From Draconibacterium orientale (GTDB lineage Bacteria > Bacteroidota > Bacteroidia > Bacteroidales > FEN-979), in assembly GCA_020718225.1 (NCBI GenBank), contig DYSO01000001.1:10968-74967 (forward strand): a stretch of 64,000 nt of DNA. The letters run 5' to 3'. Positions within the stretch are counted from its first letter, which is position 1. Each line of letters opens with the position of its first letter. A program made the position numbers and the translations under genes. The notes beneath the pieces were generated by a model that was given only the letters and a program-made list of their open reading frames with translations, was not told the origin of the DNA and ran no database searches. This document shows, piece after piece, positions 35,377 to 48,426 of this stretch.

Positions 35377-35583
35377 TAACTTGTTTTTCTTCCAAAGATA
35401 ATGTTTCAGCCAGCTCTGTTCAAGGAATATCAACCAACCCGGAAAAAGTTCAGACCAACCCGGTTTTTTATACTGGTTCAGCATTCACCGGCCGGAAATC
35501 AGGTTTTGTTGGTCCGTTGTCATATTTTACTGAAAAATGTTGTATTCCGGGTATCACGGGCTTACTTTCGTGCAAAAAACGAC

Positions 35584-36942
35584 ATGAAAAATTTTATTAT
35601 CATTTCCTTATCGTGGTTACTGGCTTTCCTTCATATGAGCGGAAATGGTCAACCTTTGCAGTTCACCGGGCATCTGGTTTATCAGACAACAAGCCGGATT
35701 TTCTTTACAGCCACATCTGACCTTGATAAGGATGGCGACCAGGATATATTGTTTACCCAACCCAATCAGAATATCCTGAGCTGGTTTGAGAATCAGGGTG
35801 ATGGAAATTTCATCATCCGGGAGGTAGGGGAATTCCCTGAGGCATTCTCCACCTGGGTTGTTGATATTGACTTTGATGGAGATAATGACATTCTGGCTTC
35901 TTCCTATGACCCTTCAAAAGTGGTTCTGTTTGAGAATGACGGAAACCAGAATTTCACACTCCATTTGTTATCGGAAGCGGTCCCTCATCCACTGACCATA
36001 ACTGCAGCAGATATCGACAAGGATGGAGATTACGACATCGCCTGTGCTACCCAGGATGCCGGCAAGGGAATGATGCTGCTCCGGAATGATGGGAATCTGG
36101 TTTTTACACCCGTTGATCTCAGCGCTCAGCCCTATTCCAGTACCTGGGCCCAGATCATCGATCTCGACAAGGACGGGGATTGGGATGTTCTCGGAAATAA
36201 TTTCAAACCAACCGGAGGGATTTTATGGTATGAACAAACGGCTCCGTTTGTTTTCACCGAGCGCCTAATCCCTTTTGCCAATACGCATGGATTTACCGCT
36301 GCTGATATTGATGGCGATGGAAATATCGACCTGGCTGCCGTATCCTGTGGAAATAAGCTTGCCTGGTTCAGGAACGACGGCAATAATAATTTTACGTCTG
36401 AAATCCTGGCCAGCAATTTCGATTGCGCCGTATCTGTTACGACGGCTGACCTTGATCTGAACTCGGAAACTGACCTCGTGGCTTCATCCTGGAGCAACGA
36501 TAAAGTTGCCTGGTGGGAGAACAACGGAAACCAGGAATTCACCATGCACACGATCAGTGATACGATGTTAAGACCCAATTGCATTTTTGTTGCAGATTTC
36601 AACAACGACGATCTTCCGGATGTTGTTTCAGGCGGATATTCAGGCACCCTGATCTGGTGGGAAAATAGCGGGCATGGGGTTGGAAACTCAGACAACATGA
36701 ATGAACCATTGGCCGAAATCAGTTTCAATCATAAAACAAGATGTGTGGAAATATTCATCCACCCCGGTTTTACCTCCGCTACGGCTACCCTTTGTGATGT
36801 AAGCGGCAAGCAGGTTTTTCCTGCTGTGGTTTTTTCAAATTCTATCCAATTGCATTGCGATACGCTGAAACCGGGATTTTATCTGGTTAAACTGGAATCA
36901 GCCGAATGGTCGGTTATCCGTAAAATTATGATATTGCGTTAA
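35584..36942 (+). CDS. FG-GAP/VCBS repeat protein with T9SS C-terminal sorting domain
   Basis: Signal peptide from ATG 35584. Repeated D-x-D-x-D-G-D loops (DLDKDGDQDI, DIDFDGDNDI, DIDKDGDYDI, DLDKDGDWDV, DIDGDGNIDL). The C-terminal GFYLVKLESAEWSVIRKIMILR is T9SS-CTD-like. Confidence 0.8.
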   Translation: MKNFIIISLSWLLAFLHMSGNGQPLQFTGHLVYQTTSRIFFTATSDLDKDGDQDILFTQPNQNILSWFENQGDGNFIIREVGEFPEAFSTWVVDIDFDGDNDILASSYDPSKVVLFENDGNQNFTLHLLSEAVPHPLTITAADIDKDGDYDIACATQDAGKGMMLLRNDGNLVFTPVDLSAQPYSSTWAQIIDLDKDGDWDVLGNNFKPTGGILWYEQTAPFVFTERLIPFANTHGFTAADIDGDGNIDLAAVSCGNKLAWFRNDGNNNFTSEILASNFDCAVSVTTADLDLNSETDLVASSWSNDKVAWWENNGNQEFTMHTISDTMLRPNCIFVADFNNDDLPDVVSGGYSGTLIWWENSGHGVGNSDNMNEPLAEISFNHKTRCVEIFIHPGFTSATATLCDVSGKQVFPAVVFSNSIQLHCDTLKPGFYLVKLESAEWSVIRKIMILR

Positions 36943-36960
36943 ACCGCCCATCCTCTTTTT

Positions 36961-37155
36961 ATGCAACAACCAGTTGTTTTTCCCGTACTTGAAACCCGGA
37001 GACTGATACTCCGGCAACCGGAACCAGAAGATGCAGCTTCAATCCTGAGGTTAAGAAGTGAAACAGAAATGCTTAAGTATATTGAAATGTACAAACTCCA
37101 ATCCCTGGATGAAGTGCGAGAGATGATAGAATCAAACGGAAGTTATCTCGCTTGA
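36961..37155 (+). pseudogene. GNAT (RimJ/RimL-like) acetyltransferase, N-terminal stub
   Basis: FPVLETRRLILRQPEPEDAASILRLRS is the typical N-terminal strand/helix of ~175-aa GNATs. Only 64 codons remain before a stop. The acetyl-CoA motif is absent. Confidence 0.55.
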
Positions 37156-37177
37156 TTGTTTTTTATTCTGAAAAATT

Positions 37178-37459
37178 AATATTGAGCCCACTCCGAAAAG
37201 TATTTTTTTTACGACATCGACACAATCATTACGCTATTGCTTGGGACATCGGGCCCCATCCCCCCGGCCCCCTTCCCCAAAAAGGGAAGGGGGCGGGTTG
37301 TGCTAATAATTCATAACGCTGTTAATCAAAGTGTTAGATTGATTAGAACACACCTCCCCTCCATTTTTGGGGAGGGGCCGGGGGTGGGGTACAATAAAGG
37401 ACGATATGATAAATAGCATACCATTATTTGTTTTGCCTTTTCGGAGGGGACTCAATATT
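37178..37459. mobile_element. 282-bp nested imperfect palindrome (MITE-like element)
   Basis: Outer inverted repeat aatattgagcccactccgaaaag (37178-37200) versus cttttcggaggggactcaatatt (37437-37459), 21/23 complementary. Inner GC-rich inverted repeat ccccatccccccggcccc (37254-37271) versus ggggccgggggtgggg (37374-37389). Local hairpins at 37268-37293 and 37353-37375. All share the same symmetry centre near 37320. Confidence 0.5.
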
Positions 37460-38081
37460 CAAAACCATATACCTGAAACGTTCCATCTGAAAACAACCAG
37501 CAGATTTCAGTCAATAGTCCATCGGGATTGTAAGTAAAACGAATTTCAGCAAAGGATCCGTCTCCGCCATGGTATGTTCCGGTAGCCAGCAGTTTTTCAG
37601 TTGTGTGAGTGAAATCCGCTGAACCTGTAAGCCATCCATCCACATTCCTGTAAACTGCCTTTATTAGCAATCCTCCGGTGCCATACAGGTAAGACTCATT
37701 ACTGATAATCGAATCGCCAATACCGGATACACGGCTAATGAGATGGCCGGCCGCATCGTAGGCATACGAGAAAATCATTTTCCGGCCATCGGGTAGCATC
37801 CGGCTGGAGCTTTTCAATCGGCCATCTTCAAGGTATTCAAAGGAGGTAATCGTCCTGAATCCATCGGAACGGATGAATTCCTTTTTATACAATAATCCTC
37901 TTTGATCATAAAAATATTCAGAGGGTCCGCCAACTTTATCGTTAAAAGAATAATTTTCCCGAATGATCTTATTGCCTGAAGTCATGGTAAAAAACGGAGA
38001 GGAATAAAAGCGCCTGGTCTGGGCCTTCACGAATTGATCAGGAAGGATGAGGCAGATAAGTAAAAGCCAGCAGGATTTCAT
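37452..38081 (-). CDS. small secreted protein with YD/RHS-like repeats
   Basis: Signal peptide MKSCWLLLICLILPDQFVKAQ. Repeated Y-x-Y-D-x-x-G-x-L pattern (FYDQRGLLYKK, FEYLEDGRLKSS, YAYDAAGHLISR, FTYNPDGLLTEI). Confidence 0.5.
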   Translation of the reverse strand: MKSCWLLLICLILPDQFVKAQTRRFYSSPFFTMTSGNKIIRENYSFNDKVGGPSEYFYDQRGLLYKKEFIRSDGFRTITSFEYLEDGRLKSSSRMLPDGRKMIFSYAYDAAGHLISRVSGIGDSIISNESYLYGTGGLLIKAVYRNVDGWLTGSADFTHTTEKLLATGTYHGGDGSFAEIRFTYNPDGLLTEICWLFSDGTFQVYGFEY

Positions 38082-38092
38082 ACGAATTTTTA

Positions 38093-39742
38093 TTACAGGA
38101 TGATCATTTTGCGGGTAAGCCGAAAGCTGTTTCCCTCCATCGCACAGGTGTACAGTCCGGCAGGAAGACCGTTTGCTGAAAAACCAAGCTGGTATTCCCC
38201 TCCGGGCATAACTTGGTTCAGCAACTTTGTCACGATTTTTCCCTGACTATTGTAGATCTGCAGGGTGATATAATCAGGGCAGGGCAGAAAAAAATTAAAT
38301 GAGGTAAATTCCCGGCATGGATTTGGCTCATTCTGATCAAGCCTTGGCCCCATTCCCCTGTATTTAATACCGTGGAGGCCGGTTGCAGTATTCAGGTTTT
38401 CGTACAGTTTTACTGAAGTCCAGGTTGAAAGCGATAAATCAGAGTCTGTGGAATAAGTATAATGGACGCTGATCAGGTCGCCGGGAGAGGGAGCCACCGA
38501 AAAGGAAATCCAGCCATCGGTAAGATCATAGCAATACTCTTCACCTGGAATAAGGATCCCGTTTTTATCTACAGAAGTGATTTGCTGTATGGGTTGTTTC
38601 CCGATATAAAACATTTTTTTACTGCCATTGCCTTGAAGTGTTTTCAAAGTATCGACCAGGCCGTCATTATCATAATCTGCCCAGGAGATTTGCTGGGTAC
38701 CTGAACCTACAGATTTTTCCCAGGAGAAAGTGTTGGCCAGCATTCCATTTATATTTTTGAAGATCCCCAATGCTGAATTCCATGACCCTGCAGCGAGGTC
38801 CAAATCCCCATCCCCATTGGCATCAGCCCAGGCTACGGCTGAGGGTTCTGTGCCCGGTAACGAAACCCATTGCGGAATAGTATCTAAAATACCATTGATG
38901 TTTTTAAACAGGAAGAACTTTTCGCCTGGCGATGCAACAGCCAAATCGGGATAACCATCATTATCAACATCTCCAAAAGCCAGTTGTCTTCCGCCGGCTA
39001 TTTGTCGCGAATGCCAGGAAGGAGAAGTTTCCAGTATACCGTTATTGTTATAAAAAATCAGGATCCCCTTGGTGCGGGCGCCCAGGGCCAGGTCCGGATC
39101 CCCGTCGAGGTCGATATCGGCAAAAGCCACGTCAGTGCCATAATAGGAACTATCGGATTGCCATTCAGGAATGGAATCAAATGAGCCATTGGTATTGATA
39201 AAAAGAAAAACCTTTTCCTTTTTGGATGTGGCATAATCGCCCCTGGCAAAGACCAGGTCAATGTCCCCGTCGCCATCGATATCACCTCCGGCACAGGAAA
39301 AGGCATTTCCGGGCTGTGACAGCCATCCGGGTGTTGGCGGCATTCCTGAATCGTTCATAAAAATATAATTGGGAACGGGGAGCATGCTGTTTGAAATCAG
39401 TCCCAGGCTTGCCACCGCAATATCTACATCTCCGTTATGATCGAAATCATTCAGGTATATATTGCATCCGGGCGCCAGGTAAGCGGAGATCCATCCTGCT
39501 GTTGCCGATAGGATTCCCGAATCATTATAATAAATCAAAGTGGGACCATTCACAATATCGAGCCCTGCAGAAACTGCCAGGTCCGGATACCCGTTATGAT
39601 CAAAATCAGCCCAGCCTATTCCGGTGGGGTAATTTTTTGAGACCTGCCAGACCGGAGAACCGGAAAAATTGAATTGTGCGCTGGCATGCAAACCGATTAC
39701 GAACATGAGTAAAATACTTTGTGTTTTCATGGCTGTTTTCAT
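38093..39742 (-). CDS. FG-GAP/VCBS repeat protein with T9SS C-terminal sorting domain
   Basis: Signal peptide from ATG 39742. Repeats FDHNGYPDLAV, GDIDGDGDIDLV, ADIDLDGDPDLA, GDVDNDGYPDLAV, ADANGDGDLDLA. C-terminal PNPCREFTSFNF...GLYTCAMEGNSFRLTRKMIIL. Confidence 0.8.
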   Translation of the reverse strand: MKTAMKTQSILLMFVIGLHASAQFNFSGSPVWQVSKNYPTGIGWADFDHNGYPDLAVSAGLDIVNGPTLIYYNDSGILSATAGWISAYLAPGCNIYLNDFDHNGDVDIAVASLGLISNSMLPVPNYIFMNDSGMPPTPGWLSQPGNAFSCAGGDIDGDGDIDLVFARGDYATSKKEKVFLFINTNGSFDSIPEWQSDSSYYGTDVAFADIDLDGDPDLALGARTKGILIFYNNNGILETSPSWHSRQIAGGRQLAFGDVDNDGYPDLAVASPGEKFFLFKNINGILDTIPQWVSLPGTEPSAVAWADANGDGDLDLAAGSWNSALGIFKNINGMLANTFSWEKSVGSGTQQISWADYDNDGLVDTLKTLQGNGSKKMFYIGKQPIQQITSVDKNGILIPGEEYCYDLTDGWISFSVAPSPGDLISVHYTYSTDSDLSLSTWTSVKLYENLNTATGLHGIKYRGMGPRLDQNEPNPCREFTSFNFFLPCPDYITLQIYNSQGKIVTKLLNQVMPGGEYQLGFSANGLPAGLYTCAMEGNSFRLTRKMIIL

Positions 39743-39852
39743 GGGGAATGTTTTAAAATACAAAAATGGGGTCTTCTGATTGGGAATCAAAACACTTTTG
39801 ACCAACGCCGGATTTTTCCTGACAAGAATAATTAAAGGATTTGCATATCGGC

Positions 39853-40047
39853 CTAAGGCTCCAGGTATTTCGAAAATTTTTCATCGATGTGCTGATTGAA
39901 CCACCGGTCGATGACTGATTTACGAAACCTCCATTCCTTTCCCAGTTTGGCAGCCGGAATTTTACCGTCCTGGGCCCAGGTATAGATCGTCTGTGGCTTA
40001 AGTTTCAAGTATCCGGCCACCTCCTCTAAGGTCATGATATCCTCCAT
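39853..40047 (-). CDS. excisionase-family HTH DNA-binding protein
   Basis: MTLEEVAGYLKLKPQTIYTWAQDGKIPAAKLGKEWRFRKSVIDRWF is a close match to the excisionase-family DNA-binding-domain pattern. Confidence 0.8.
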   Translation of the reverse strand: MEDIMTLEEVAGYLKLKPQTIYTWAQDGKIPAAKLGKEWRFRKSVIDRWFNQHIDEKFSKYLEP

Positions 40048-40050
40048 TTG

Positions 40051-40839
40051 CTATTTCCCGATTTGATTCAATAGTTTATCTGCTCCGGTTGTTTTGATAT
40101 TACTTGAGTCGGAAACGTCTCCCGGGGTTCTGATCACCTCAATCTTTTTCGCTTTCTCCGGCGAAACAAGCTGCTCAACCGAATAAACAATGGCGGTATA
40201 AAAATTACCTTCGTATTTTCTGAAAAATTTAAACTCCTCATGCTTCTCACAAAGGAAAGGTCTTAAGTTCCATGCTAACTGGATGCCGACAAATGCCAGG
40301 ATGATGATCCATATCCTGAACACGGCAACCCCGATCTGCGGATAGATGCTTTTATTTTCGCAGGCATATTTTAATGCATCGATCATGAGCCGCATGCCGA
40401 AAACACCTGCAAAAATAAAGATGGCCACGTGCAGGAGCTGTAGAAAATGGTAATTTCCGCCGGTAACCTGAAATACAATCACAATGGGGGCAAACGATAA
40501 CGCGATGGTCGCTGTGAGAACCACGCCGCTTAATACGATCACGATCATTTGCCTGACGCTCATCTTCGACCCCAGCACCTGCTGGATGATAAAAAAGGAG
40601 GGGAAACAGATGATGATCGTTGAGAGAAACAGGATGATGACCTTCAAACCGGTAACAGCCGATTGCAGAACACTGTGGTAGCTCCCCATCACCATGCCGT
40701 AAAGAAAGGCAAAGGTGCAGATCAGCAGGAGCTGATTAAATATCAACCGGTTGGATTGTTTTGTGTTGATGTCGTTGAAATACGACTCCTTGTTCTGGAA
40801 GATTTTAAATACTTCCCTGATCCCTATAAATGTTTTCAT
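40051..40839 (-). CDS. multi-pass membrane protein, unknown function
   Basis: 262 aa with about 6 hydrophobic segments. It lies 3 nt upstream of the HTH gene on the same strand. No family recognised. Confidence 0.55.
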   Translation of the reverse strand: MKTFIGIREVFKIFQNKESYFNDINTKQSNRLIFNQLLLICTFAFLYGMVMGSYHSVLQSAVTGLKVIILFLSTIIICFPSFFIIQQVLGSKMSVRQMIVIVLSGVVLTATIALSFAPIVIVFQVTGGNYHFLQLLHVAIFIFAGVFGMRLMIDALKYACENKSIYPQIGVAVFRIWIIILAFVGIQLAWNLRPFLCEKHEEFKFFRKYEGNFYTAIVYSVEQLVSPEKAKKIEVIRTPGDVSDSSNIKTTGADKLLNQIGK

Positions 40840-42532: not shown

Positions 42533-45406
42533 ATGTACGATATCTACCTGCTCAACGATCTTAATCCCGGCAAACTTCGCAGGACATTTGATAAAACCCT
42601 GGAAGAACTCGCCTCGGGAAATTTTACGGCGGCTGAAGTAAAGAAAATGCCCAACACGGGCTATTACAGGGCAAAGCTTGACCAGGAAAACCGGTTGCTG
42701 TTCCGCTTCGGCAGGCATAATGACCAGATTTGTCTTCTGGTACTGGAACTGATCCTCAACCACGATTATGCAAAATCGAGGTTTCTCAGAGGCTCTTCAG
42801 TTGACGAATCGAACCTTCAGCCTTTTAATAACGAGGCTGCCTTACCAACCGAAGATCTGGTGAGCCTCCCTTATATCAATAAAAAATATCCCAAATTCCA
42901 CCTGCTCGATAAGTTCCTTTCGTTCGACGACATGCAGGAGGAAATTCTCCAGTATCCCCTGCCCCAGATCATCATCGGATCGGCAGGAAGCGGAAAAACG
43001 GCCCTGACCCTCGAAAAGATCAAGACACTTAAAGGCCGCATCCTTTATGTGACCCTTTCATCCTACCTGGCCGAAAATTCCTCCCGGTGGTATTATTCCC
43101 ACAATTTTGAGGACGAACAGCAGGAGATTGACTTTCTCTCATACCGCGAATTCATTGAAACCATCCGTATTCCCGAAGGAAAGGAAATGGATTTCAGGAT
43201 CTTCCTGCGGTGGTTTTGGGGATTCAGACAATCCACAGGCCTTAAGGATTCCCATAAAGTGTATGAAGAATTCAGGGGAGTGATCACCGGGATGGATATT
43301 TCCAAGGAGCATCTTTCATATGAAGATTACATGTCACTCGGAGTTAAACAATCCATTTTCCTTTCTTCCGAACGTGAAACCGTATATGCCTTGTTTACGA
43401 AATACCTGCTATTCCTGAAAGAAGAAGGGTATTATGATATCAACATGTATTCACATGGTTTGCTGGAGCATAGCAGTGCGGTATATGATTACATCATTGT
43501 GGATGAGGTACAGGATTTTACCAATATACAGCTTTTTTTAATCCTGAAAACCCTGGTCAAACCTGTAAATTTCATCCTTTGCGGCGACGCGAACCAGGTT
43601 GTCCACCCCAATTTCTTCTCTTGGTCCCATCTTAAGACCATGTTCTACCGAAATGATCTCAGGGGAGATGAAATCCGCATACTTCATGCCAATTACCGGA
43701 ATACACAAGTAGTGTCGGACCTTGCAAACCGTTTGCTCAATCTCAAGATCGCCCGTTTCGGTTCCATTGATAAAGAAAGTAATTATCTGGTGAGGACTGT
43801 TTCCCGGAATGCAGGCGAAATGGTGTTTCTCGAAGAAAAGCATAAAACGGTTGCGGACCTTGCCCGGAAAACAGGGAAATCGGTGAATTACGCGGTGCTC
43901 GTATTGCGTAACGAGGACAAACAAAGGGCTGCTAACCTCTTTCCATCTCCCCTGCTCTTCTCGGTACAAGAATCGAAGGGGCTTGAGTACGAAAATATCA
44001 TCCTCTGCAATTTCATCTCCGATAATGCCTCCGAATTCAATGAAATATGTGATGGCGTTAGCGCTGAGGCCGTTCATGGCGAGGAACCTATATATTCGAG
44101 GGGCAGAGATAAGACCGATAAATCGCTCGATGCCTATAAGTTTTATATCAACTCCCTGTACGTGGCCATTACAAGGGCCGTGAAAAATGTCTATATCGTG
44201 GAAAAAACCAGGGGACATAAACTCATCAGCCTGCTTGGAATTTCTGAGGAGGTGAGGGAAAAGGTCATTAAAGAGGATGTTTCTTCGGCGGATGACTGGA
44301 AGCGGGAGGCCCGGCGACTTGAAATGATGGGCAAAGCCGAACAGGCTGAAGCCATCCGTAAGAATATCCTGGTAACGGTCAAACCCTACTGGGAACCCAT
44401 GACCATTGAGAAATATATAACTGCAAAAGAAGAGGCGCTCAATCCCGAACACTTCAATAAGAAAGCCAAGGACAAGTTGTTTGATTTTGCCCTGATCCAC
44501 AATCAGGTCCTGATTCTTGAAAAACTTGCCGGGTTGAATTACCACAAAGCCGAAAAACCCGAAGATGAGCGCAGCTCCCTCTTCCGCAAGTATTACCAGT
44601 ATTACAGGGACGATAACCTGAAGATGGTGGTGCAGGAAATCAATAAATTCGGGATTGATTACCGGGATGTCCACAACTTTACCCCCTTGCATGCCGCGGT
44701 ATTCTCAGGGGCTGTTAAGATCTTCACCGCCCTGCTGCAAAACGGGGCCAATCCGGAATTACAGGATACTTTTTTCAAAACCCCTTTACAGATTGCCCTT
44801 CAACAGGCTTTTACCAACCCCGATTACGCTAAAAACAAACTTGGGAAAATTTACCCTATGCTCCTTACCGCTTCACTGGCTATTCAGGTTAGCGGACAAC
44901 TTATCAAAATCGATCCCCATAAAGCCGAATTCCTGATGGTGAACCTGTTTATAGCGGTTCAGTCTTCTATCATGCAGACAAAACATTATTTCCAGGCCCA
45001 GGGGTTGCTGGTCGATGACCTGCTTACTCATATTACGAATTTTCCCGAAACGGTTTTGCCCGCCTACCGCAAGAAGCGGGAATACTGGCTGGCCCTTCTG
45101 TCCAAACACGAAAGCGGGAGCAATAATGTTTACTGCAAAAAACTTTTCTGCCGTGTGCAGAGGGGGGCATACGTCCTTAACTCCTTGATGCTCATTCGTT
45201 TCGGTGAAACCTGGATCCCTGTGCATGAAATCATTAACAGCCAGGGCATCAGTAGTTACGATATAAAGACCCATTCGATGGAAAAGCAACAGAAAAGAAT
45301 GGAGGAAAGCAAACGCCGGTGGGAAAAAGAACAGAAGAAACGTGAGAAAGAGGCCAGGGAACGCGAGAAATGGGAACGCAACAGGTACGGAGGATATCAG
45401 AGATAA
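42533..45406 (+). CDS. SF1 (UvrD/Rep-like) helicase with RelE/ParE-like N-terminal domain, ankyrin repeats and a Lys/Glu-rich tail
   Basis: Helicase motifs IIGSAGSGKTALT (I), IIVDEVQDF (II), ILCGDANQVV (III), LHANYRNT (IV), SVQESKGLEYENIIL and LYVAITRAVKNVYIV (VI). N-terminal GYYRAKLDQENRLLFRF...ICLLVLELILNHDY resembles the RelE/ParE C-terminal pattern. Ankyrin TPLHAAVFSGAVKIFTALLQNGANPELQD..KTPLQIAL. Tail EKQQKRMEESKRRWEKEQKKREKEAREREKWERNRY. Confidence 0.8.
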   Translation: MYDIYLLNDLNPGKLRRTFDKTLEELASGNFTAAEVKKMPNTGYYRAKLDQENRLLFRFGRHNDQICLLVLELILNHDYAKSRFLRGSSVDESNLQPFNNEAALPTEDLVSLPYINKKYPKFHLLDKFLSFDDMQEEILQYPLPQIIIGSAGSGKTALTLEKIKTLKGRILYVTLSSYLAENSSRWYYSHNFEDEQQEIDFLSYREFIETIRIPEGKEMDFRIFLRWFWGFRQSTGLKDSHKVYEEFRGVITGMDISKEHLSYEDYMSLGVKQSIFLSSERETVYALFTKYLLFLKEEGYYDINMYSHGLLEHSSAVYDYIIVDEVQDFTNIQLFLILKTLVKPVNFILCGDANQVVHPNFFSWSHLKTMFYRNDLRGDEIRILHANYRNTQVVSDLANRLLNLKIARFGSIDKESNYLVRTVSRNAGEMVFLEEKHKTVADLARKTGKSVNYAVLVLRNEDKQRAANLFPSPLLFSVQESKGLEYENIILCNFISDNASEFNEICDGVSAEAVHGEEPIYSRGRDKTDKSLDAYKFYINSLYVAITRAVKNVYIVEKTRGHKLISLLGISEEVREKVIKEDVSSADDWKREARRLEMMGKAEQAEAIRKNILVTVKPYWEPMTIEKYITAKEEALNPEHFNKKAKDKLFDFALIHNQVLILEKLAGLNYHKAEKPEDERSSLFRKYYQYYRDDNLKMVVQEINKFGIDYRDVHNFTPLHAAVFSGAVKIFTALLQNGANPELQDTFFKTPLQIALQQAFTNPDYAKNKLGKIYPMLLTASLAIQVSGQLIKIDPHKAEFLMVNLFIAVQSSIMQTKHYFQAQGLLVDDLLTHITNFPETVLPAYRKKREYWLALLSKHESGSNNVYCKKLFCRVQRGAYVLNSLMLIRFGETWIPVHEIINSQGISSYDIKTHSMEKQQKRMEESKRRWEKEQKKREKEAREREKWERNRYGGYQR

Positions 45407-45409
45407 TAT

Positions 45410-46828
45410 ATGAGCAAACATCAGCAGCAGCAAGCATTATCGCCCGAAAAGTACATCCGGACCAGGGCACGGACCCTTTCCATCGGGACCTGTTATATCA
45501 ACTCAAACTGGCGGGAATCCGGCCTGGCCCTTGTATTTGTCAACCGTCGTCATATCAACGCCCATGTTACCCATGCAGCGTACGTTGTCGATCTGTATTG
45601 CCTGGGCCTGAAAGAGAGTTTCTGGACCTTTAACCAGGATCCCCTTGATTTCAAAGACTTCATGGAGCAACAGCAAAAAGAGAATCCGCAAGGGGTCCGT
45701 CTGATTAAAACAGAATACGGGCTGGTACATAATATTATCTATGGAGCCATTGAATATGCTGGGGAGTTGGGGTTTCTGCCGCATAAATCATTTGACACCA
45801 CAAAGTATGTGCTTGAAGAGGACGATGATCATGTTGAGTTCATCAAACTTACCTTCGGCTATAAAGGGAAACCCTTGTACATCTCGAGCCCTGGACAACC
45901 GGCAGAGAGGAATAGGGTACTGGCTCAACTTGAAAAAAACCCAGGTCGGGGCAAATATGAATATATCACCGAGGCGGATGCCCCTGTATTCTTCGAGAAT
46001 GCAGATAAAAAAGAACGGGAGGCTGCCAATTACCACGATCCTGAAGTCAAACAGGGTATTATTACCGACTTTATTGCCCGCACCGGCAATCCGGAACAAT
46101 TTATGCTTAATAAGGTAGAATTAATAGGTGAAATACTCCGGTTATCTGAGGCCATTTTTTATGAGTATATGAGGTCGGATGAAGAAATGGAAAAATCTTT
46201 TGAAACCATATCCGATTTGTTTGATTTCGAGATTACCGATGAGTCGTTTTCGGACGAGATGCTGCTTTGGAACAACCAGGCAGGAGAGAACCTTCCGGAG
46301 ATCAGAAGACAAGCAGAAAAGCTGCTCTTTATGTTAGAGGAAGGGCAGGTTACGGATGGGTTATGGCAATCAAAGGTGATGATGGATAAATATCCGGAAT
46401 TTCCCGTTTTCATCTATCTATACATGAGTTTCCTCGAGCAAAAGGATGGGCTCATCAAGCTATTGTCAAAGCTTGAAAAATTTACTATTCAATATCCCGA
46501 TTATCTGCCGCTGACATATTTATATGCTGTTTCCTTTCTGTTAAACAAACCGGAAGGAACATCCAGGCAAATCGATGATTCTTTTCATTTGAAGAATTTT
46601 TACCCGCACCGGAAAACCTTCTGCAAAGAAGAAGTCCTGGATTACGTTACCCTGTTGTCCATCAACTACAGCCATTCAGGGAAATTCGCATTGAACGAAG
46701 AGATAATCATGCACTTCGACAACTATTTTCCTGGGGTAATTCCCGAAAGCCAGATCCTCACCTTAAAACTTCAAAAGATCCCTCATGTCCTGGAATGGTG
46801 CAGGAAATGGATGGAGGAACAAAAATAA
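45410..46828 (+). CDS. hypothetical protein (472 aa), conserved-looking N-terminal domain plus helical C-terminal half
   Basis: Starts 3 nt after the helicase stop. N-terminal PEKYIRTRARTLSIGTCYINSNWRESGLALVFVNRRH...VVDLYCLGLKES...HNIIYGAIEYAGELGFLPHKSF recalls an uncharacterised domain seen in other phyla. No catalytic motif recognised. Confidence 0.6.
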   Translation: MSKHQQQQALSPEKYIRTRARTLSIGTCYINSNWRESGLALVFVNRRHINAHVTHAAYVVDLYCLGLKESFWTFNQDPLDFKDFMEQQQKENPQGVRLIKTEYGLVHNIIYGAIEYAGELGFLPHKSFDTTKYVLEEDDDHVEFIKLTFGYKGKPLYISSPGQPAERNRVLAQLEKNPGRGKYEYITEADAPVFFENADKKEREAANYHDPEVKQGIITDFIARTGNPEQFMLNKVELIGEILRLSEAIFYEYMRSDEEMEKSFETISDLFDFEITDESFSDEMLLWNNQAGENLPEIRRQAEKLLFMLEEGQVTDGLWQSKVMMDKYPEFPVFIYLYMSFLEQKDGLIKLLSKLEKFTIQYPDYLPLTYLYAVSFLLNKPEGTSRQIDDSFHLKNFYPHRKTFCKEEVLDYVTLLSINYSHSGKFALNEEIIMHFDNYFPGVIPESQILTLKLQKIPHVLEWCRKWMEEQK

Positions 46829-47125
46829 TCCACCGGACAAGCGACCAGGTAATCGTCTCTCCGGTACACAATTTCAGCAGCGCTTTGCTGACGGATTGCC
46901 CAAATGGGGACCCTGGAAATATTACGTCAAAGAGTTCATTAATTTCAAAGACGGCGAAGTAAAACATGGTAACCTGAAACCTCAGTCCCTCATTGAATAT
47001 ACCATAAATGTAAGGAGAAAACGAAGATTGTCAATAGCCGAATTGTAGTTTATTGTCATTCTAAACAGCTGACTGGAAAAGTCCCTGGAGTGAAGCTAAT
47101 CAACCCCCGGAACCATCAATAATCA

Positions 47126-47498
47126 TCAAATTTTTACCAACCAATCAAAACACCCTCTGCATATACTGAACAACGGGGTGTTGAAAAGAACCTGCTCAAA
47201 CGTCTCCGCAAATATGTTAGCCACGATCTGCTCATCAAGGTGGAATCGCCCTTGGAAGCTTCTTGTTGTTGACGTATTTGAGGACGATGAAGAACTTCTC
47301 GGGTTCAATATCTTCGAAGGTGACGATCTGGCTGATGTATCCGCACAAGCGAACGCAGGACCGGATCAGGGATTTGAACTCATTTTTCCGGTCGGGATCT
47401 TCGATTTCCTGCCATTTCTCCACCACGCGGTTCAGGACGGGCGGCAGCATCTCGTCTGATTCTCGTTCGTTGAAATACAGGCGGCAGAACTCATCCAT
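47126..47498 (-). pseudogene. type I restriction enzyme HsdR, C-terminal remnant (frameshifted)
   Basis: LNRVVEKWQEIEDPDRKNEFKSLIRSCVRLCGYISQIVTFEDIEPEKFFIVLKYVNNKKLPR matches the conserved HsdR C-terminal (DUF3387-type) helix pair. A second frame continues with HLDEQIVANIFAETFEQ. The helicase and nuclease domains (~850 aa) are absent. Confidence 0.55.
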
Positions 47499-47755
47499 GT
47501 ACGGATGAAAGTCCGAAGACCGATGTCTCAGGTCTGAACATGTACTACCTATTAGTACGATGACTGATTAAGAAGAAAATGACACCCTGAACTTCCGCAC
47601 GTAAACGAGTTGGTGGTAACTCGGGAAGATAATATCTAACCGTAAACTTTGGCAAAATTCCGTTTTTTAAATTGGATTGGAATCTGTTTATATATTATTG
47701 TTGCCAATACTCATAGGAATGGATGTCAAAAAAAATGAACATAAGAATTTACTGA

Positions 47756-48413
47756 ATGAAAAACCATGCGGGTCATGCAGGGTTTATCATTGCCGCAACA
47801 ACCGCTTTCGCCGGTTTTTTACTCCTGGGATGGCTGGATGCCAATGTCAAGCAAAAGATCAGGGCTGCCGAAACCCGCATAGACATCAACAAACAGGAAA
47901 TCGGAGCAATCAAAGGCGATTTTTCGGTATTTGATCCCGGTGCTGAATTTTATAACGAGAACCATCCTTACACGAATGACCTTGACATTTTCGGCAAAGG
48001 TTCTCTGTTTCAATGCCTGAACAAATCCACAACCATATTCGGTAAAAAACGGCTGGCGGAGTATTTGAACAATGCTTACCAGCTCAGGAACGAAATACCG
48101 GGACGGCAGGAAGCCATCAGGGAACGCTCCGGGAAAATTGATTTCAGGCAGGAGTTTCAACGTATCTTTTTTAAACAATCCGCGGATAAGGATGATCTTC
48201 CGGCGATTGGCAGCTTTTTCATTCAACCACCCGGAATTTGTCTTCCCGGAATTACATACAGGAGAATATCTGATTAAGGCTAAGAAGATCGGGCATCCGT
48301 TGATACCTGTCGAAATCTGTGTGACCAATGACTCCCTGGTCAGGGCTGAAATACAACGTGGTTGGACTATTTTGAATGATTCAAAACACAGGATGCAGGA
48401 TGAGAAGCAGTGA
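47756..48413 (+). pseudogene. MutS-family (membrane-anchored MutS-related) gene remnant
   Basis: A TM helix, then HPYTNDLDIFGKGSLFQCLNKSTTIFGKKRLAEYL (MutS core-domain pattern). A second frame gives AKKIGHPLIPVEICVTND (the segment just before the ATPase), followed by a stop. The middle and the ATPase domain are missing. Confidence 0.6.
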
Positions 48414-48426
48414 GCGGGAATAATGG

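Follow-up and report, generated by a model that had tools for sequence, protein, structure and literature searches.

Locus and surroundings

Two genes lie close together on the forward strand of the window, the 64,000-nucleotide stretch of Draconibacterium orientale DNA analysed here (GenBank assembly GCA_020718225.1, contig DYSO01000001.1). The features of the two genes and of the adjacent downstream region, in window coordinates, are as follows.

42533..45406, + strand: gene for a 957-aa multidomain SF1 helicase of the family of Shigella pWR100 Orf182 (ORF, homologues, AF2)
42533..42787, + strand: candidate N-terminal RelE/YoeB-like (BECR-type) domain, aa 1-85 (AF2 topology, weak Pfam matches, hhalign, conservation)
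42788..42952, + strand: linker, aa 86-140, partly disordered (AF2 pLDDT)
42953..44212, + strand: helicase core of SF1A type (UvrD/Rep/PcrA-like), aa 141-560; its 1B insertion is helical and its 2B region small (motifs, Foldseek, Pfam)
44288..44863, + strand: helical-repeat and ankyrin region, aa 586-777 (Pfam Ank, PDB profile, AF2)
44876..45235, + strand: conserved C-terminal alpha/beta domain, aa 782-901, YRKKRxY...RGxYxLNP...W (conservation, AF2)
45254..45403, + strand: single long helix rich in K, E and R, aa 908-957 (composition, AF2)
45404..45412, + strand: stop-start junction TAA tat ATG with a 3-nt spacer (sequence)
45410..46828, + strand: 472-aa partner gene from a large, independent family (ORF; AF2 model with pLDDT 87.8)
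45431..45985, + strand: partner N-terminal alpha/beta domain of no named family, aa 8-192 (conservation)
46040..46822, + strand: partner C-terminal TPR-like helical repeats, aa 211-471 (PDB profile, AF2, annotations)
47235..47498, - strand: what is left of the C-terminus of a type I restriction enzyme R subunit; context outside the unit (tblastn)
47756..48277, + strand: truncated MutS-related gene fragment, context outside the unit (Pfam, NCBIfam)

The two ORFs, of 957 and 472 aa, and the 3-nt gap between them (...aga TAA tat ATG agc...) are as the initial annotation had given them. It had also described an HsdR tail and a collapsed MutS-like gene downstream, and weak matches to both kinds are present. 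The surviving restriction ORF (47235..47498) is only 87 aa long; its tblastn match, 28.6% identical (E 3e-6), is annotated as a type I restriction endonuclease. The 173-aa ORF at 47756..48277 matches Pfam MutS_III at 5.7e-6, under the Pfam cut-off, and NCBIfam MutS at 0.0035; a convergent symporter gene comes next. The genes around the pair encode T9SS/FG-GAP proteins, a peptidase C1, an SSF symporter, a CAAX protease, Dus and thymidine kinase. These flanks are ordinary chromosomal genes, and two gene remnants are insufficient for the defence or accessory island that had been proposed.

Domain architecture of the helicase

RelE and YoeB are ribosome-dependent mRNA interferases of the BECR fold that serve as toxins of type II toxin-antitoxin systems. 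In the AF2 model of the 957-aa protein (pLDDT 82.3, pTM 0.74), the N-terminal domain has the predicted order b(3-7)-a(13-27)-b(45-48)-b(54-62)-b(65-74). Homology to RelE/YoeB is statistically weak: among 33 diverse family members, Pfam ParE_like is the top weak match in eight (best E 0.006) and YoeB_toxin in one (E 0.0075), all under the cut-off; compared by hhalign with a YoeB alignment, the family scores E 0.002 with a probability of only 14%, in the expected register; and a profile search of the domain against PDB sequences gives no match. One homologue carries the JGI annotation “Txe/YoeB family toxin”. Conservation across 80 sequences from many phyla is strict: R54, E72, H77 and Y79 are unchanged in all 80, K37, K38 and K48 are K or R in all 80, and R46 is R in 79. 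In a register obtained by aligning the family to YoeB with hhalign and carrying it on to RelE by hand, R46 and K48 correspond to RelE K52 and K54, R54 to RelE R61 and YoeB R65, and H77 and Y79 to YoeB H83 and Y84, positions that we take to have the catalytic roles described in published work on RelE and YoeB. That these eight catalytic-position residues are invariant or conservatively changed suggests that the chemistry has been kept and speaks against a relic. The RelE/ParE-superfamily N-terminus originally suggested thus has AF2 topology and invariant residues in its favour and weak sequence statistics against it, so that a RelE/YoeB-like fold is supported but not proven.

The linker that follows has pLDDT below 50 at residues 124-134 and block means of 41-57 over residues 111-140; the conserved SRFL motif (S82-R83-F84-L85) is listed with it. 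The core carries the complete set of SF1 motifs, unchanged across 38 family members, including motifs I, II, III, IV and VI that had previously been read as intact: the Q-motif (S130-F131-D132...Q135), motif I (G149-SAGSGKT156), motif II (D324-EVQD328), motif III (G351-D..NQ355), motif IV (N387-YRN390), motif V (Q479..KGLEY486) and motif VI (Y543-V..TR548). Pfam matches are UvrD-helicase, AAA_19 and Viral_helicase1, and the best Foldseek matches are PcrA (1qhg, 1.3e-10), FBH1, UvrD, AdnB, Rep, HelD and GajB. The initial annotation had named a full-length match to a characterised repair helicase as a test of its reading, and none was found: the PcrA/UvrD models of NCBIfam, whose cut-offs exceed 900, give it 17-25 bits, and among PDB sequences the best match reaches E ~4e-4, so the protein is not an orthologue of characterised repair helicases.

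After the core, Pfam Ank matches residues 715-745 above its threshold (25.2 bits, cut-off 21.1), a PDB search with the family profile finds ankyrin/DARPin chains over residues 695-762 (best 1e-46), and residues ~643 to 777 form helix pairs in the model, in agreement with the ankyrin repeat reported earlier. The basic C-terminal domain (aa 782-901) is novel. It is modelled as helices followed by four strands, has no Pfam or PDB sequence match, and keeps R846, E860, R874, G878, Y880 and W894 unchanged in 50 diverse sequences. The charged tail was also correctly described, since K, R or E make up 28 of the last 52 residues, and it is modelled as a single helix (908-956). In homologues the tail diverges in sequence and keeps its charge, and the last residue is often W, F or Y.

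Distribution and mobility of the helicase family

The helicase family is large, widespread, horizontally mobile and experimentally uncharacterised, and its architecture is fixed. Full-length relatives are 40-50% identical over about 900 residues (about 4-905). The 80 species-level loci fall in Bacteroidota, Proteobacteria, PVC and other phyla, with a patchy distribution across species; free-living methanotrophs, nitrifiers and Bacteroidales commonly carry a member, and homologues occur in several Methylococcales genera, mussel symbionts among them. Copies from Nitrosomonas and Methylococcales are 77% identical. The gene is present on 133 plasmids, including 101 Shigella records, 13 from E. coli and 10 from Piscirickettsia, and in 115 of 5426 complete E. 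coli genomes (2%). All three E. coli chromosomal copies inspected lie in CP4-like mobile islands that carry AlpA-type regulators and IS elements, and one of these islands also has CbtA/YeeU toxin-antitoxin and anti-restriction genes. In one E. coli strain the gene is a pseudogene.

Gene order around the helicase varies even between close relatives. No family-wide conserved neighbour was found in 79 loci, and no conserved 40-200-aa (antitoxin-like) ORF within 700 nt on either side. The helicase is a stand-alone protein in this sense, and any restraint on the toxin-like domain would need to come, in cis, from the same chain. Of the 117 genes counted as immediate neighbours of family members, most are housekeeping genes, and defence genes are not enriched.

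Orf182 of Shigella flexneri pWR100 belongs to the same family and has the same architecture, with 41% identity over residues 4-914 and the RelE-like N-domain residues kept; it differs in being plasmid-borne in an enterobacterium and in lacking the 472-aa partner. GC content (50.91%) and mass (111 kDa) confirm that it is the Shigella homologue. On pINV plasmids the gene is labelled “UvrD-helicase domain-containing protein” and sits near ospG and ipaH9.8. Orf182 is expressed, is neither secreted nor translocated by the Shigella T3SS, and was used as a negative control; published knowledge stops at an ankyrin repeat protein that is expressed and not secreted (PMC5658099).

The partner gene

The initial annotation could name no motif in the partner, and none is matched in Pfam, PADLOC or NCBIfam. 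The N-terminal domain has no Pfam match and no PDB fold match at E<=0.001, and its residues R21, W34, R46, H48, D61, G66, H107, N108 and D138 are unchanged in 47 sequences. The C-terminal half, previously described as helical and TPR-like, is all-helical in the AF2 model, matches PA4667 (4e-8) and, at profile positions 299-410, TPR proteins by PDB profile, and carries TPR_19/TPR_16 annotations in homologues. The helicase has no specific PADLOC model, just weak generic GajB/UvrD-type matches, which agrees with the earlier view that the pair is no named defence system.

The partner lies downstream of the helicase in the window and at loci L001, L002, L003, L034 and L090, all with different flanks, and at least 13 further pairs are inferred from helicase and partner matches whose longest contigs have the same length. 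In the related loci the two genes overlap slightly or stand up to about 13 nt apart; one gap measures 40-85 nt. Because the pair is kept while its flanks differ, it is a real local operon. It is confined to one Bacteroidales clade in which the helicases are at least 72% identical, and 76 of the 80 species-level helicase loci have no partner match. The helicase is much the more conserved of the two, at 87% identity against 73% for the partner, and 72% against 47%. An exhaustive profile search gives a partner family of 994 clusters (50% identity) at E<=1e-30, a separate large family usually located elsewhere. The proposed coupling holds within the clade but not beyond it, where partner relatives at 39% identity or less sit in unrelated contexts away from the helicase. 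Helicase and partner are not a general two-gene system, and the partner is probably a lineage-specific adaptor or modulator recruited in one Bacteroidales sub-clade.

Proposed function and alternatives

From the observed architecture, conservation and distribution we infer, tentatively and with somewhat less than even confidence, that the 957-aa protein is most likely a conflict or addiction protein, self-contained in combining helicase and RNase, whose accessory is specific to one lineage. The single polypeptide would act in anti-phage or anti-plasmid defence, or in plasmid or island addiction. Along the chain, the candidate RelE/YoeB-like domain is joined by a flexible linker to a UvrD-type SF1A core, helical/ankyrin repeats, the basic C-terminal domain and the charged helix. 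The ATP-driven helicase with its ankyrin and C-terminal domains would provide the sensor and an in-cis restraint (autoinhibition), and the tethered RelE/YoeB-like domain would be the effector, which once activated would cut ribosome-bound mRNA and so stop translation. The 472-aa gene, from an independent family, was taken into a tight operon beside the helicase gene in a single Bacteroidales sub-clade, and there its product may contact the helicase. Several points count against this proposal: the N-domain's homology to RelE/YoeB is statistically weak, sequence conservation exceeds what a defence gene usually shows, many chromosomal copies lie amid housekeeping genes with no defence enrichment, PADLOC has no model specific for the helicase, the UvrD-type motifs suggest a DNA substrate, which would have to be coupled to a ribosome-dependent RNase, and a domain tethered to a 100-kDa protein would have to enter the ribosomal A site.

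Very strong full-length conservation across phyla, the Methylococcales homologues, the chromosomal copies amid housekeeping genes and HelD as a structural neighbour would also suit a housekeeping-type surveillance factor at the transcription-translation or ribosome interface, comparable to HelD or UvrD acting on RNA polymerase, whose RelE-like domain would recognise or cleave stalled-ribosome mRNA for rescue. Such a role is unlikely for a gene that occurs in just 2% of E. coli genomes (on mobile islands in the three copies inspected, on plasmids in others), is a pseudogene in one strain, and has an unconserved gene order and a patchy distribution. An accessory helicase for replication, repair, or plasmid or island maintenance, its N-domain a dead toxin-fold relic used for nucleic-acid or protein binding, would explain the UvrD-type motifs and fold, the occurrence on large low-copy plasmids and integrative islands, and a conserved basic C-terminal domain that could bind DNA; it too has a low probability, as the eight catalytic-position residues are retained and replication or partition genes are not associated in the loci.

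The initial annotation's own reading, an obligate defence system of helicase plus partner inside a defence island, draws on the tight spacing, the survival of the pair among different flanks in one clade, the nearby HsdR remnant and the failure of PADLOC to classify either gene. It is improbable: the flanks are housekeeping genes, partner relatives (a ~1000-cluster family) occur without the helicase, and the partner is much less conserved. As a general two-gene system it is largely refuted by the 76 of 80 loci without partner and the lack of a family-wide neighbour. Least credible, and very improbable, is a secreted ankyrin effector aimed at eukaryotes, prompted by the ankyrin repeats, by weak NCBIfam matches to Legionella Ank effectors limited to the ankyrin region, and by the Shigella virulence plasmid, where the gene lies near ospG and ipaH9.8. 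Against it stands the common occurrence of the family in free-living methanotrophs, in nitrifiers and in Bacteroidales. In Shigella this role is refuted by the T3SS secretion assays on Orf182 (PMC5658099).

Comparison with known systems

The UvrD/PcrA/Rep SF1A DNA helicases share all helicase motifs with the window protein and are its closest solved folds. It is only ~12% identical to them, falls far under the NCBIfam equivalog cut-offs and is not an orthologue; its 2B region appears reduced, as read from AF2 secondary structure, and it adds a toxin-like domain at the N-terminus, ankyrin repeats and a C-terminal domain. A 2025 survey of multidomain RelE/ParE toxins lists no helicase fusions in its main text or in the supplementary tables examined (PMC11980606). 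The N-domain resembles RelE/YoeB in predicted strand and helix order, alignment register, and the conserved basic residues, His and Tyr that occupy catalytic positions, but it is fused to a 100-kDa helicase, has no adjacent antitoxin and falls under family thresholds.

Gabija consists of the GajA nuclease and the UvrD-like helicase GajB, and Nhi is a single-protein helicase-nuclease defence. Like these, the window protein joins a UvrD-like helicase with a putative nucleic-acid-cleaving effector; in PADLOC it scores best with GajB models (E from 1e-12 to 1e-8) and with Nhi (2e-7), and GajB is also a fold neighbour. The PADLOC matches, however, span generic helicase segments only, no GajA-type ATPase-TOPRIM gene lies near the helicase, and the effector would be a RelE-type RNase within the same chain. 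By analogy, the proposed conflict protein may also be likened to CapRel-type fused toxin-antitoxins and to the effector-NTPase-repeat logic of STAND/Avs proteins, in that a putative toxin without a separate antitoxin is joined to an NTPase and repeats that could both sense and restrain it. The window protein differs from these in its toxin fold and in having an SF1 helicase, rather than a STAND module, as its NTPase.

The helicase and its surroundings in the window

The 957-aa helicase is, we conclude firmly, a stand-alone member of a widespread, mobile and uncharacterised protein family with a fixed multidomain architecture. Its gene is followed directly by that of the 472-aa partner, and both open reading frames, together with the TAA-tat-ATG spacer between them, are exactly as described in the initial annotation.

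42533..45406, forward strand: helicase gene (ORF, 957 aa)
45410..46828, forward strand: partner gene (ORF, 472 aa)
47235..47498, reverse strand: HsdR C-terminal remnant, within the 1.6-kb stretch 3' of the partner
47756..48277: truncated MutS-related fragment whose N-terminal segment is hydrophobic, within the same stretch

The GC contents of the helicase gene (45.9%) and the partner gene (43.8%) are close to that of the window (44.8%) and thus give no hint of recent acquisition. Promoter and terminator scans found no more sites than in shuffled sequence. The 1.6 kb between the pair and a convergent symporter gene (46829-48426) hold no intact gene and look like decayed sequence. The HsdR and MutS remnants reported downstream are present, but this is not the defence island that had been suspected: there is only decay, and the window flanks hold unremarkable genes (T9SS/FG-GAP proteins, an HTH_17 gene, peptidase C1, an SSF symporter, a CAAX protease, Dus and thymidine kinase).

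At 35401-39805 a small RHS-repeat protein is encoded between two FG-GAP/VCBS-repeat proteins that bear T9SS C-terminal sorting domains, which confirms a Bacteroidota chromosome context. At 39853-40839 (reverse strand), about 1.7 kb upstream of the helicase, a 64-aa HTH_17 (excisionase-type) protein is encoded just downstream of a 262-aa multi-pass membrane protein without a Pfam match; this locus may be a small mobile-element or regulatory remnant.

Anatomy of the helicase

The AlphaFold2 model of the helicase, built from a 38-sequence input, is a confident one (pLDDT 82.3, pTM 0.74) and is divided into six parts.

Parts of the helicase in the AlphaFold2 model
i, aa 3-74: N-domain, strand/helix order b-a-b-b-b
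ii, aa 110-140: low-confidence linker
iii, aa 145-557: helicase core, with a helical insertion (212-318) and only a little inserted sequence between motifs IV and V
iv, aa 586-777: paired helices, including ankyrin repeats
v, aa 782-901: alpha/beta domain
vi, aa 908-956: one long helix

The SF1 motifs are intact, as had been claimed, and the Q-motif and motifs I (GSAGSGKT), II (DEVQD), III (GDANQ), IV (NYRN), V (QESKGLEY) and VI (YVAITRA) are invariant across 38 homologues from several phyla. Walker A, the DExx box and motifs III-VI are of the UvrD type, placing the protein in SF1A (the UvrD/Rep/PcrA class). The core has the RecA-like 1A/2A fold, and its closest Foldseek matches in the PDB are PcrA (1.3e-10), UvrD (1.8e-9) and Rep (1.1e-8); FBH1, AdnB, HelD and GajB are further neighbours and Upf1-like helicases rank lower, all at ~12% identity. 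By sequence the likeness to UvrD is remote (best PDB E about 4e-4). The initial annotation had named a full-length match to a well-characterised repair helicase as a counter-indication; none is present in NCBIfam, where equivalog scores fall far under the cut-offs (PcrA, 25 bits against 911; helicase II, 23.9 against 965; uvrD, 16.6 against 1144). The helicase is therefore not an orthologue of UvrD, PcrA, Rep or another characterised repair helicase.

At least one ankyrin repeat had been predicted after the core, and one, at aa 715-745, exceeds the Pfam gathering score (PF00023, 25.2 bits against 21.1); the family profile also retrieves ankyrin and DARPin chains from the PDB, down to E 1e-46. 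The charged K/E/R tail is likewise real: the last 52 residues are 54% K/R/E and are modelled as one long helix. Between the two, the C-terminal domain has six invariant residues in 50 diverse sequences (R846, E860, R874, G878, Y880 and W894), and neither the single sequence nor the 50-sequence profile finds a Pfam or PDB sequence relative for it; that it is winged-helix-like is a guess.

The N-terminal toxin-like domain

The modelled N-domain (E3-7, H13-27, E45-48, E54-62, E65-74; pLDDT 77-91) has the core topology of the RelE/ParE (BECR) fold, as judged from strand order alone. The corresponding sequence matches are sub-threshold. Among 33 diverse members, Pfam gives ParE_like as the top sub-threshold match in eight (best E 0.006) and YoeB_toxin in one (E 0.0075). 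NCBIfam yields a single marginal YoeB match, one homologue is labelled 'Txe/YoeB family toxin' in its JGI annotation, and the N-domain profile finds nothing relevant among PDB sequences. Aligned by hhalign to 20 YoeB toxins from the supplement of PMC11980606, the domain scores E 0.002 (probability 14%) in the expected register, VKK..YRAKLD.ENRLLF against EKL..YSRRIN.QHRLVY of YoeB. Single E. coli YoeB and RelE sequences gave no significant alignment (E 0.16 and 0.089). The RelE_PF06296 sequences of the Gerdes supplement, HigB-like and 120-130 aa long, seemed too different and were rejected as a comparison set.

Across 80 sequences from many phyla, only K or R occurs at K37, K38 and K48, 79 sequences have R at position R46, and R54, E72, H77 and Y79 are invariant. 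The lysine/arginine, histidine and tyrosine residues of a RelE/YoeB RNase would thus all be represented, if the hhalign register is followed. Extending that register to RelE by hand, we take R46 and K48 to correspond to the catalytic K52 and K54 of RelE, and R54 to its catalytic R61; by the hhalign register itself, R54 presumably also corresponds to YoeB R65, and H77 and Y79 presumably to YoeB H83 and Y84, all catalytic in YoeB. We read the N-domain as a probable RelE/YoeB-type domain with its chemistry kept, for which the sequence evidence is weak but consistent. The RelE/ParE-type fold proposed for the N-terminus is supported, though not proven, by strand order and by the residues at the presumed catalytic positions; sequence and profile matches are weak.

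Distribution and mobility of the helicase family

When one genome per species was scanned, full-length relatives (aa about 4-905, 40-50% identity) came up at 80 loci. The taxa include Bacteroidales, Saprospiraceae, Prolixibacteraceae and Sphingobacteriales, as well as Victivallales, Akkermansia, Desulfobacterota, Myxococcota, Nitrospirota, Zetaproteobacteria and many Gammaproteobacteria (Methylococcales, Chromatiaceae, Thiothrix, Endozoicomonas, Nitrosomonas and Accumulibacter). The Nitrosomonas and Methylococcales copies are 70-80% identical (~77% over ~900 residues; proteins P0280 and P0292-P0305 against P0217), a high value for such lineages, which suggests either that ammonia and methane oxidisers have recently exchanged the gene horizontally or that it is under unusually strong constraint.

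The family occurs in 133 plasmid records, including 101 from Shigella, 13 from E. coli and 10 from Piscirickettsia salmonis. Phage records contain no homologue, and a search of a viral structure library returned generic SF1 helicases only. The Shigella gene lies between shf/capU/virK and ospG, and its GC content (50.91%) and product size (111 kDa) match pWR100 Orf182 exactly. All that is published on Orf182 is that it contains an ankyrin domain and is expressed, and that the T3SS does not secrete it (PMC5658099). On one P. salmonis plasmid (L082, 5037-10647) IS6 transposases and a recombinase flank the helicase, and genes for a small RNA-binding protein and a Fic fragment follow downstream; here the helicase looks like the cargo of a composite transposon-like unit.

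In E. coli, 115 of 5426 complete genomes (2.1%) carry the helicase, at 106 chromosomal places and 10 on plasmids; one strain has a pseudogenised copy. All three chromosomal copies that were inspected are part of CP4-like integrative islands, which contain helix-turn-helix/AlpA-type regulators, an inovirus-Gp2-family gene and IS elements; one of these islands has CbtA/YeeU toxin-antitoxin, anti-restriction and RadC genes in addition, and Ag43 is present on another. A 177-aa hypothetical ORF is always found ~90 nt upstream of the helicase homologue in such islands (loci L083, 11422-11955; L084, 11401-11937; L093, 9420-9941) and is pseudogenised together with the helicase in strain UTME-7. It was rejected as a general partner, being confined to E. 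coli islands and without a homologue at other loci; by analogy with the Bacteroidales partner, it may be an enterobacterial lineage-specific companion.

Neighbourhoods of the helicase gene

Clustering of three genes on each side of the helicase at 79 loci revealed no conserved neighbour, the largest cluster comprising five loci in mixed positions. Within 700 nt of either end there is no conserved ORF of 40-200 aa, so the family lacks a conserved antitoxin-like gene. The conserved adjacent antitoxin of a type II toxin-antitoxin system is thus missing, and the partner does not fill that place, being unmatched in 76 of the 80 loci. The 117 immediate neighbours surveyed with Pfam and PADLOC were a mixed set in which housekeeping genes prevailed (E2 acyltransferases, PEP carboxylase, chorismate synthase, IlvD, DnaB, AcrB); SNF2 helicases, Fic proteins, CopG antitoxins and transposases were represented by just two each.

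The partner protein

The partner is, again firmly, a lineage-specific addition from an unrelated large family. By tblastn it lies downstream of the helicase at four loci only (L001, L002, L003 and L034), which are exactly those with a helicase at least 72% identical to the query; L090 is a fifth locus with the pair, and at least 13 further pairs are implied by longest contigs of equal length. The other flanking genes of the window that were tested match none of the 80 loci, the four paired ones included, so it is the pair itself that is conserved rather than general synteny. The two genes overlap slightly or are separated by up to about 13 nt, apart from a single gap of 40-85 nt. In genomes that have both, identity is much higher for the helicase than for the partner (87% against 73%, 86% against 63%, 72% against 47%). 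Elsewhere, partner relatives (at most 39% identity) follow PHP and acetyltransferase genes, lie near an eCIS or sit inside a polysaccharide locus. A 35%-identical relative at L085 (6001-13419) and L086 directly precedes a WYL-domain regulator and a type I CRISPR-Cas locus (cas6, cas7) and has no helicase beside it. The coupling put forward in the initial annotation survives as a tight operon kept in one lineage but not as a general system. The neighbours of family members show no enrichment for defence genes.

The partner model, also confident (pLDDT 87.8), has an alpha/beta N-domain (aa about 12-190) and an all-helical C-half. Invariant N-domain residues are R21, W34, R46, H48, D61, G66, H107, N108 and D138, and a Foldseek search of the PDB found no solved structural relative at E<=0.001. 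The partner had been described as having no nameable motif, and Pfam, PADLOC and NCBIfam are all blank. Its C-half had been called helical and possibly TPR-like; the model agrees on the helices, and a PDB sequence profile match to PA4667 (4e-8), with weaker ones to designed TPRs, suggests TPR likeness, whereas Pfam TPR is absent and Foldseek matches are weak (E>0.1). An exhaustive profile search placed 994 clusters (50% identity, E<=1e-30) in the family, mostly of 450-480 aa. Some members, of about 665-690 aa, have an extra C-terminal PRiA4_ORF3 (PF07929) domain and others a weak DUF1186 match (representative proteins P0368, P0382, P0401, P0402, P0414 and P0417), which connects the unnamed N-domain with a network of bacterial domains that are poorly understood.

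Proposed mechanism and alternatives

Our tentative reading, the likeliest single one though somewhat short of even odds, is a single-chain module: the helicase, ankyrin and C-terminal portions would together act as sensor and restraint, and the RNase domain, when released, would execute translational arrest, the outcome being defence or plasmid/island addiction. This reading draws on a putative RNase of the RelE/YoeB type whose catalytic positions are conserved and which lacks an antitoxin gene, on its flexible tether to a UvrD-type helicase and then repeat domains, and on an accessory distribution on plasmids and islands. A bolder version, possible though rather doubtful, is that the family is an unrecognised, widespread immune or addiction class in which the UvrD-type helicase detects nucleic acid that is foreign or aberrant and frees a covalently tethered RelE/YoeB-type A-site endonuclease. 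DNA surveillance would then be coupled directly to translational shut-off, with a copy (Orf182) on the virulence plasmid of Shigella and EIEC.

Extreme conservation and housekeeping neighbours would fit a housekeeping role in surveillance of the ribosome or RNA polymerase interface, which we consider unlikely in view of the E. coli data. Similarly improbable is a DNA-metabolism helicase with a non-catalytic toxin-fold relic, because the residues at the catalytic positions are invariant. An obligate two-gene system, as first proposed, is very unlikely as a general statement, and the case carries a lesson: two genes that are tightly paired at one locus need not form a system, since one may have been added in a single lineage. 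A secreted ankyrin effector is excluded for Shigella by published assays in which Orf182 was not secreted (PMC5658099).

If the single-chain mechanism holds, it would provide a new architecture for multidomain RelE/ParE toxins and for helicase-based immunity, both of them active fields, with a DNA helicase and a ribosome-dependent RNase in one chain and no separate antitoxin. A conserved 111-kDa protein of the Shigella virulence plasmid, used until now just as a non-secreted control, would gain a function as well. Natural copies in E. coli (WP_000686652) and Shigella make the family easy to test.

Comparison with known defence systems

The initial annotation recognised no named defence system, and PADLOC-DB v2 agrees, with no specific model match or gene set: the helicase has generic and partial matches only (GajB, RT-helicase, Nhi and AbiO helicase) and the partner none. 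Gabija was rejected because GajA (the ATPase-TOPRIM nuclease) is absent from the 79 loci, the neighbours in the window being peptidase C1 and the TPR-like partner. Literature searches turned up neither a RelE/YoeB-helicase-ankyrin architecture nor an anti-phage role, and the main text and supplementary tables of a 2025 survey of multidomain RelE/ParE toxins, in the portions available, contain no helicase or ankyrin fusion (PMC11980606). In its working, the helicase protein would most resemble the helicase-plus-nuclease defences Gabija and Nhi and the fused toxin-sensor proteins; it is a member of none of these, and its putative toxin belongs to another fold class than theirs.
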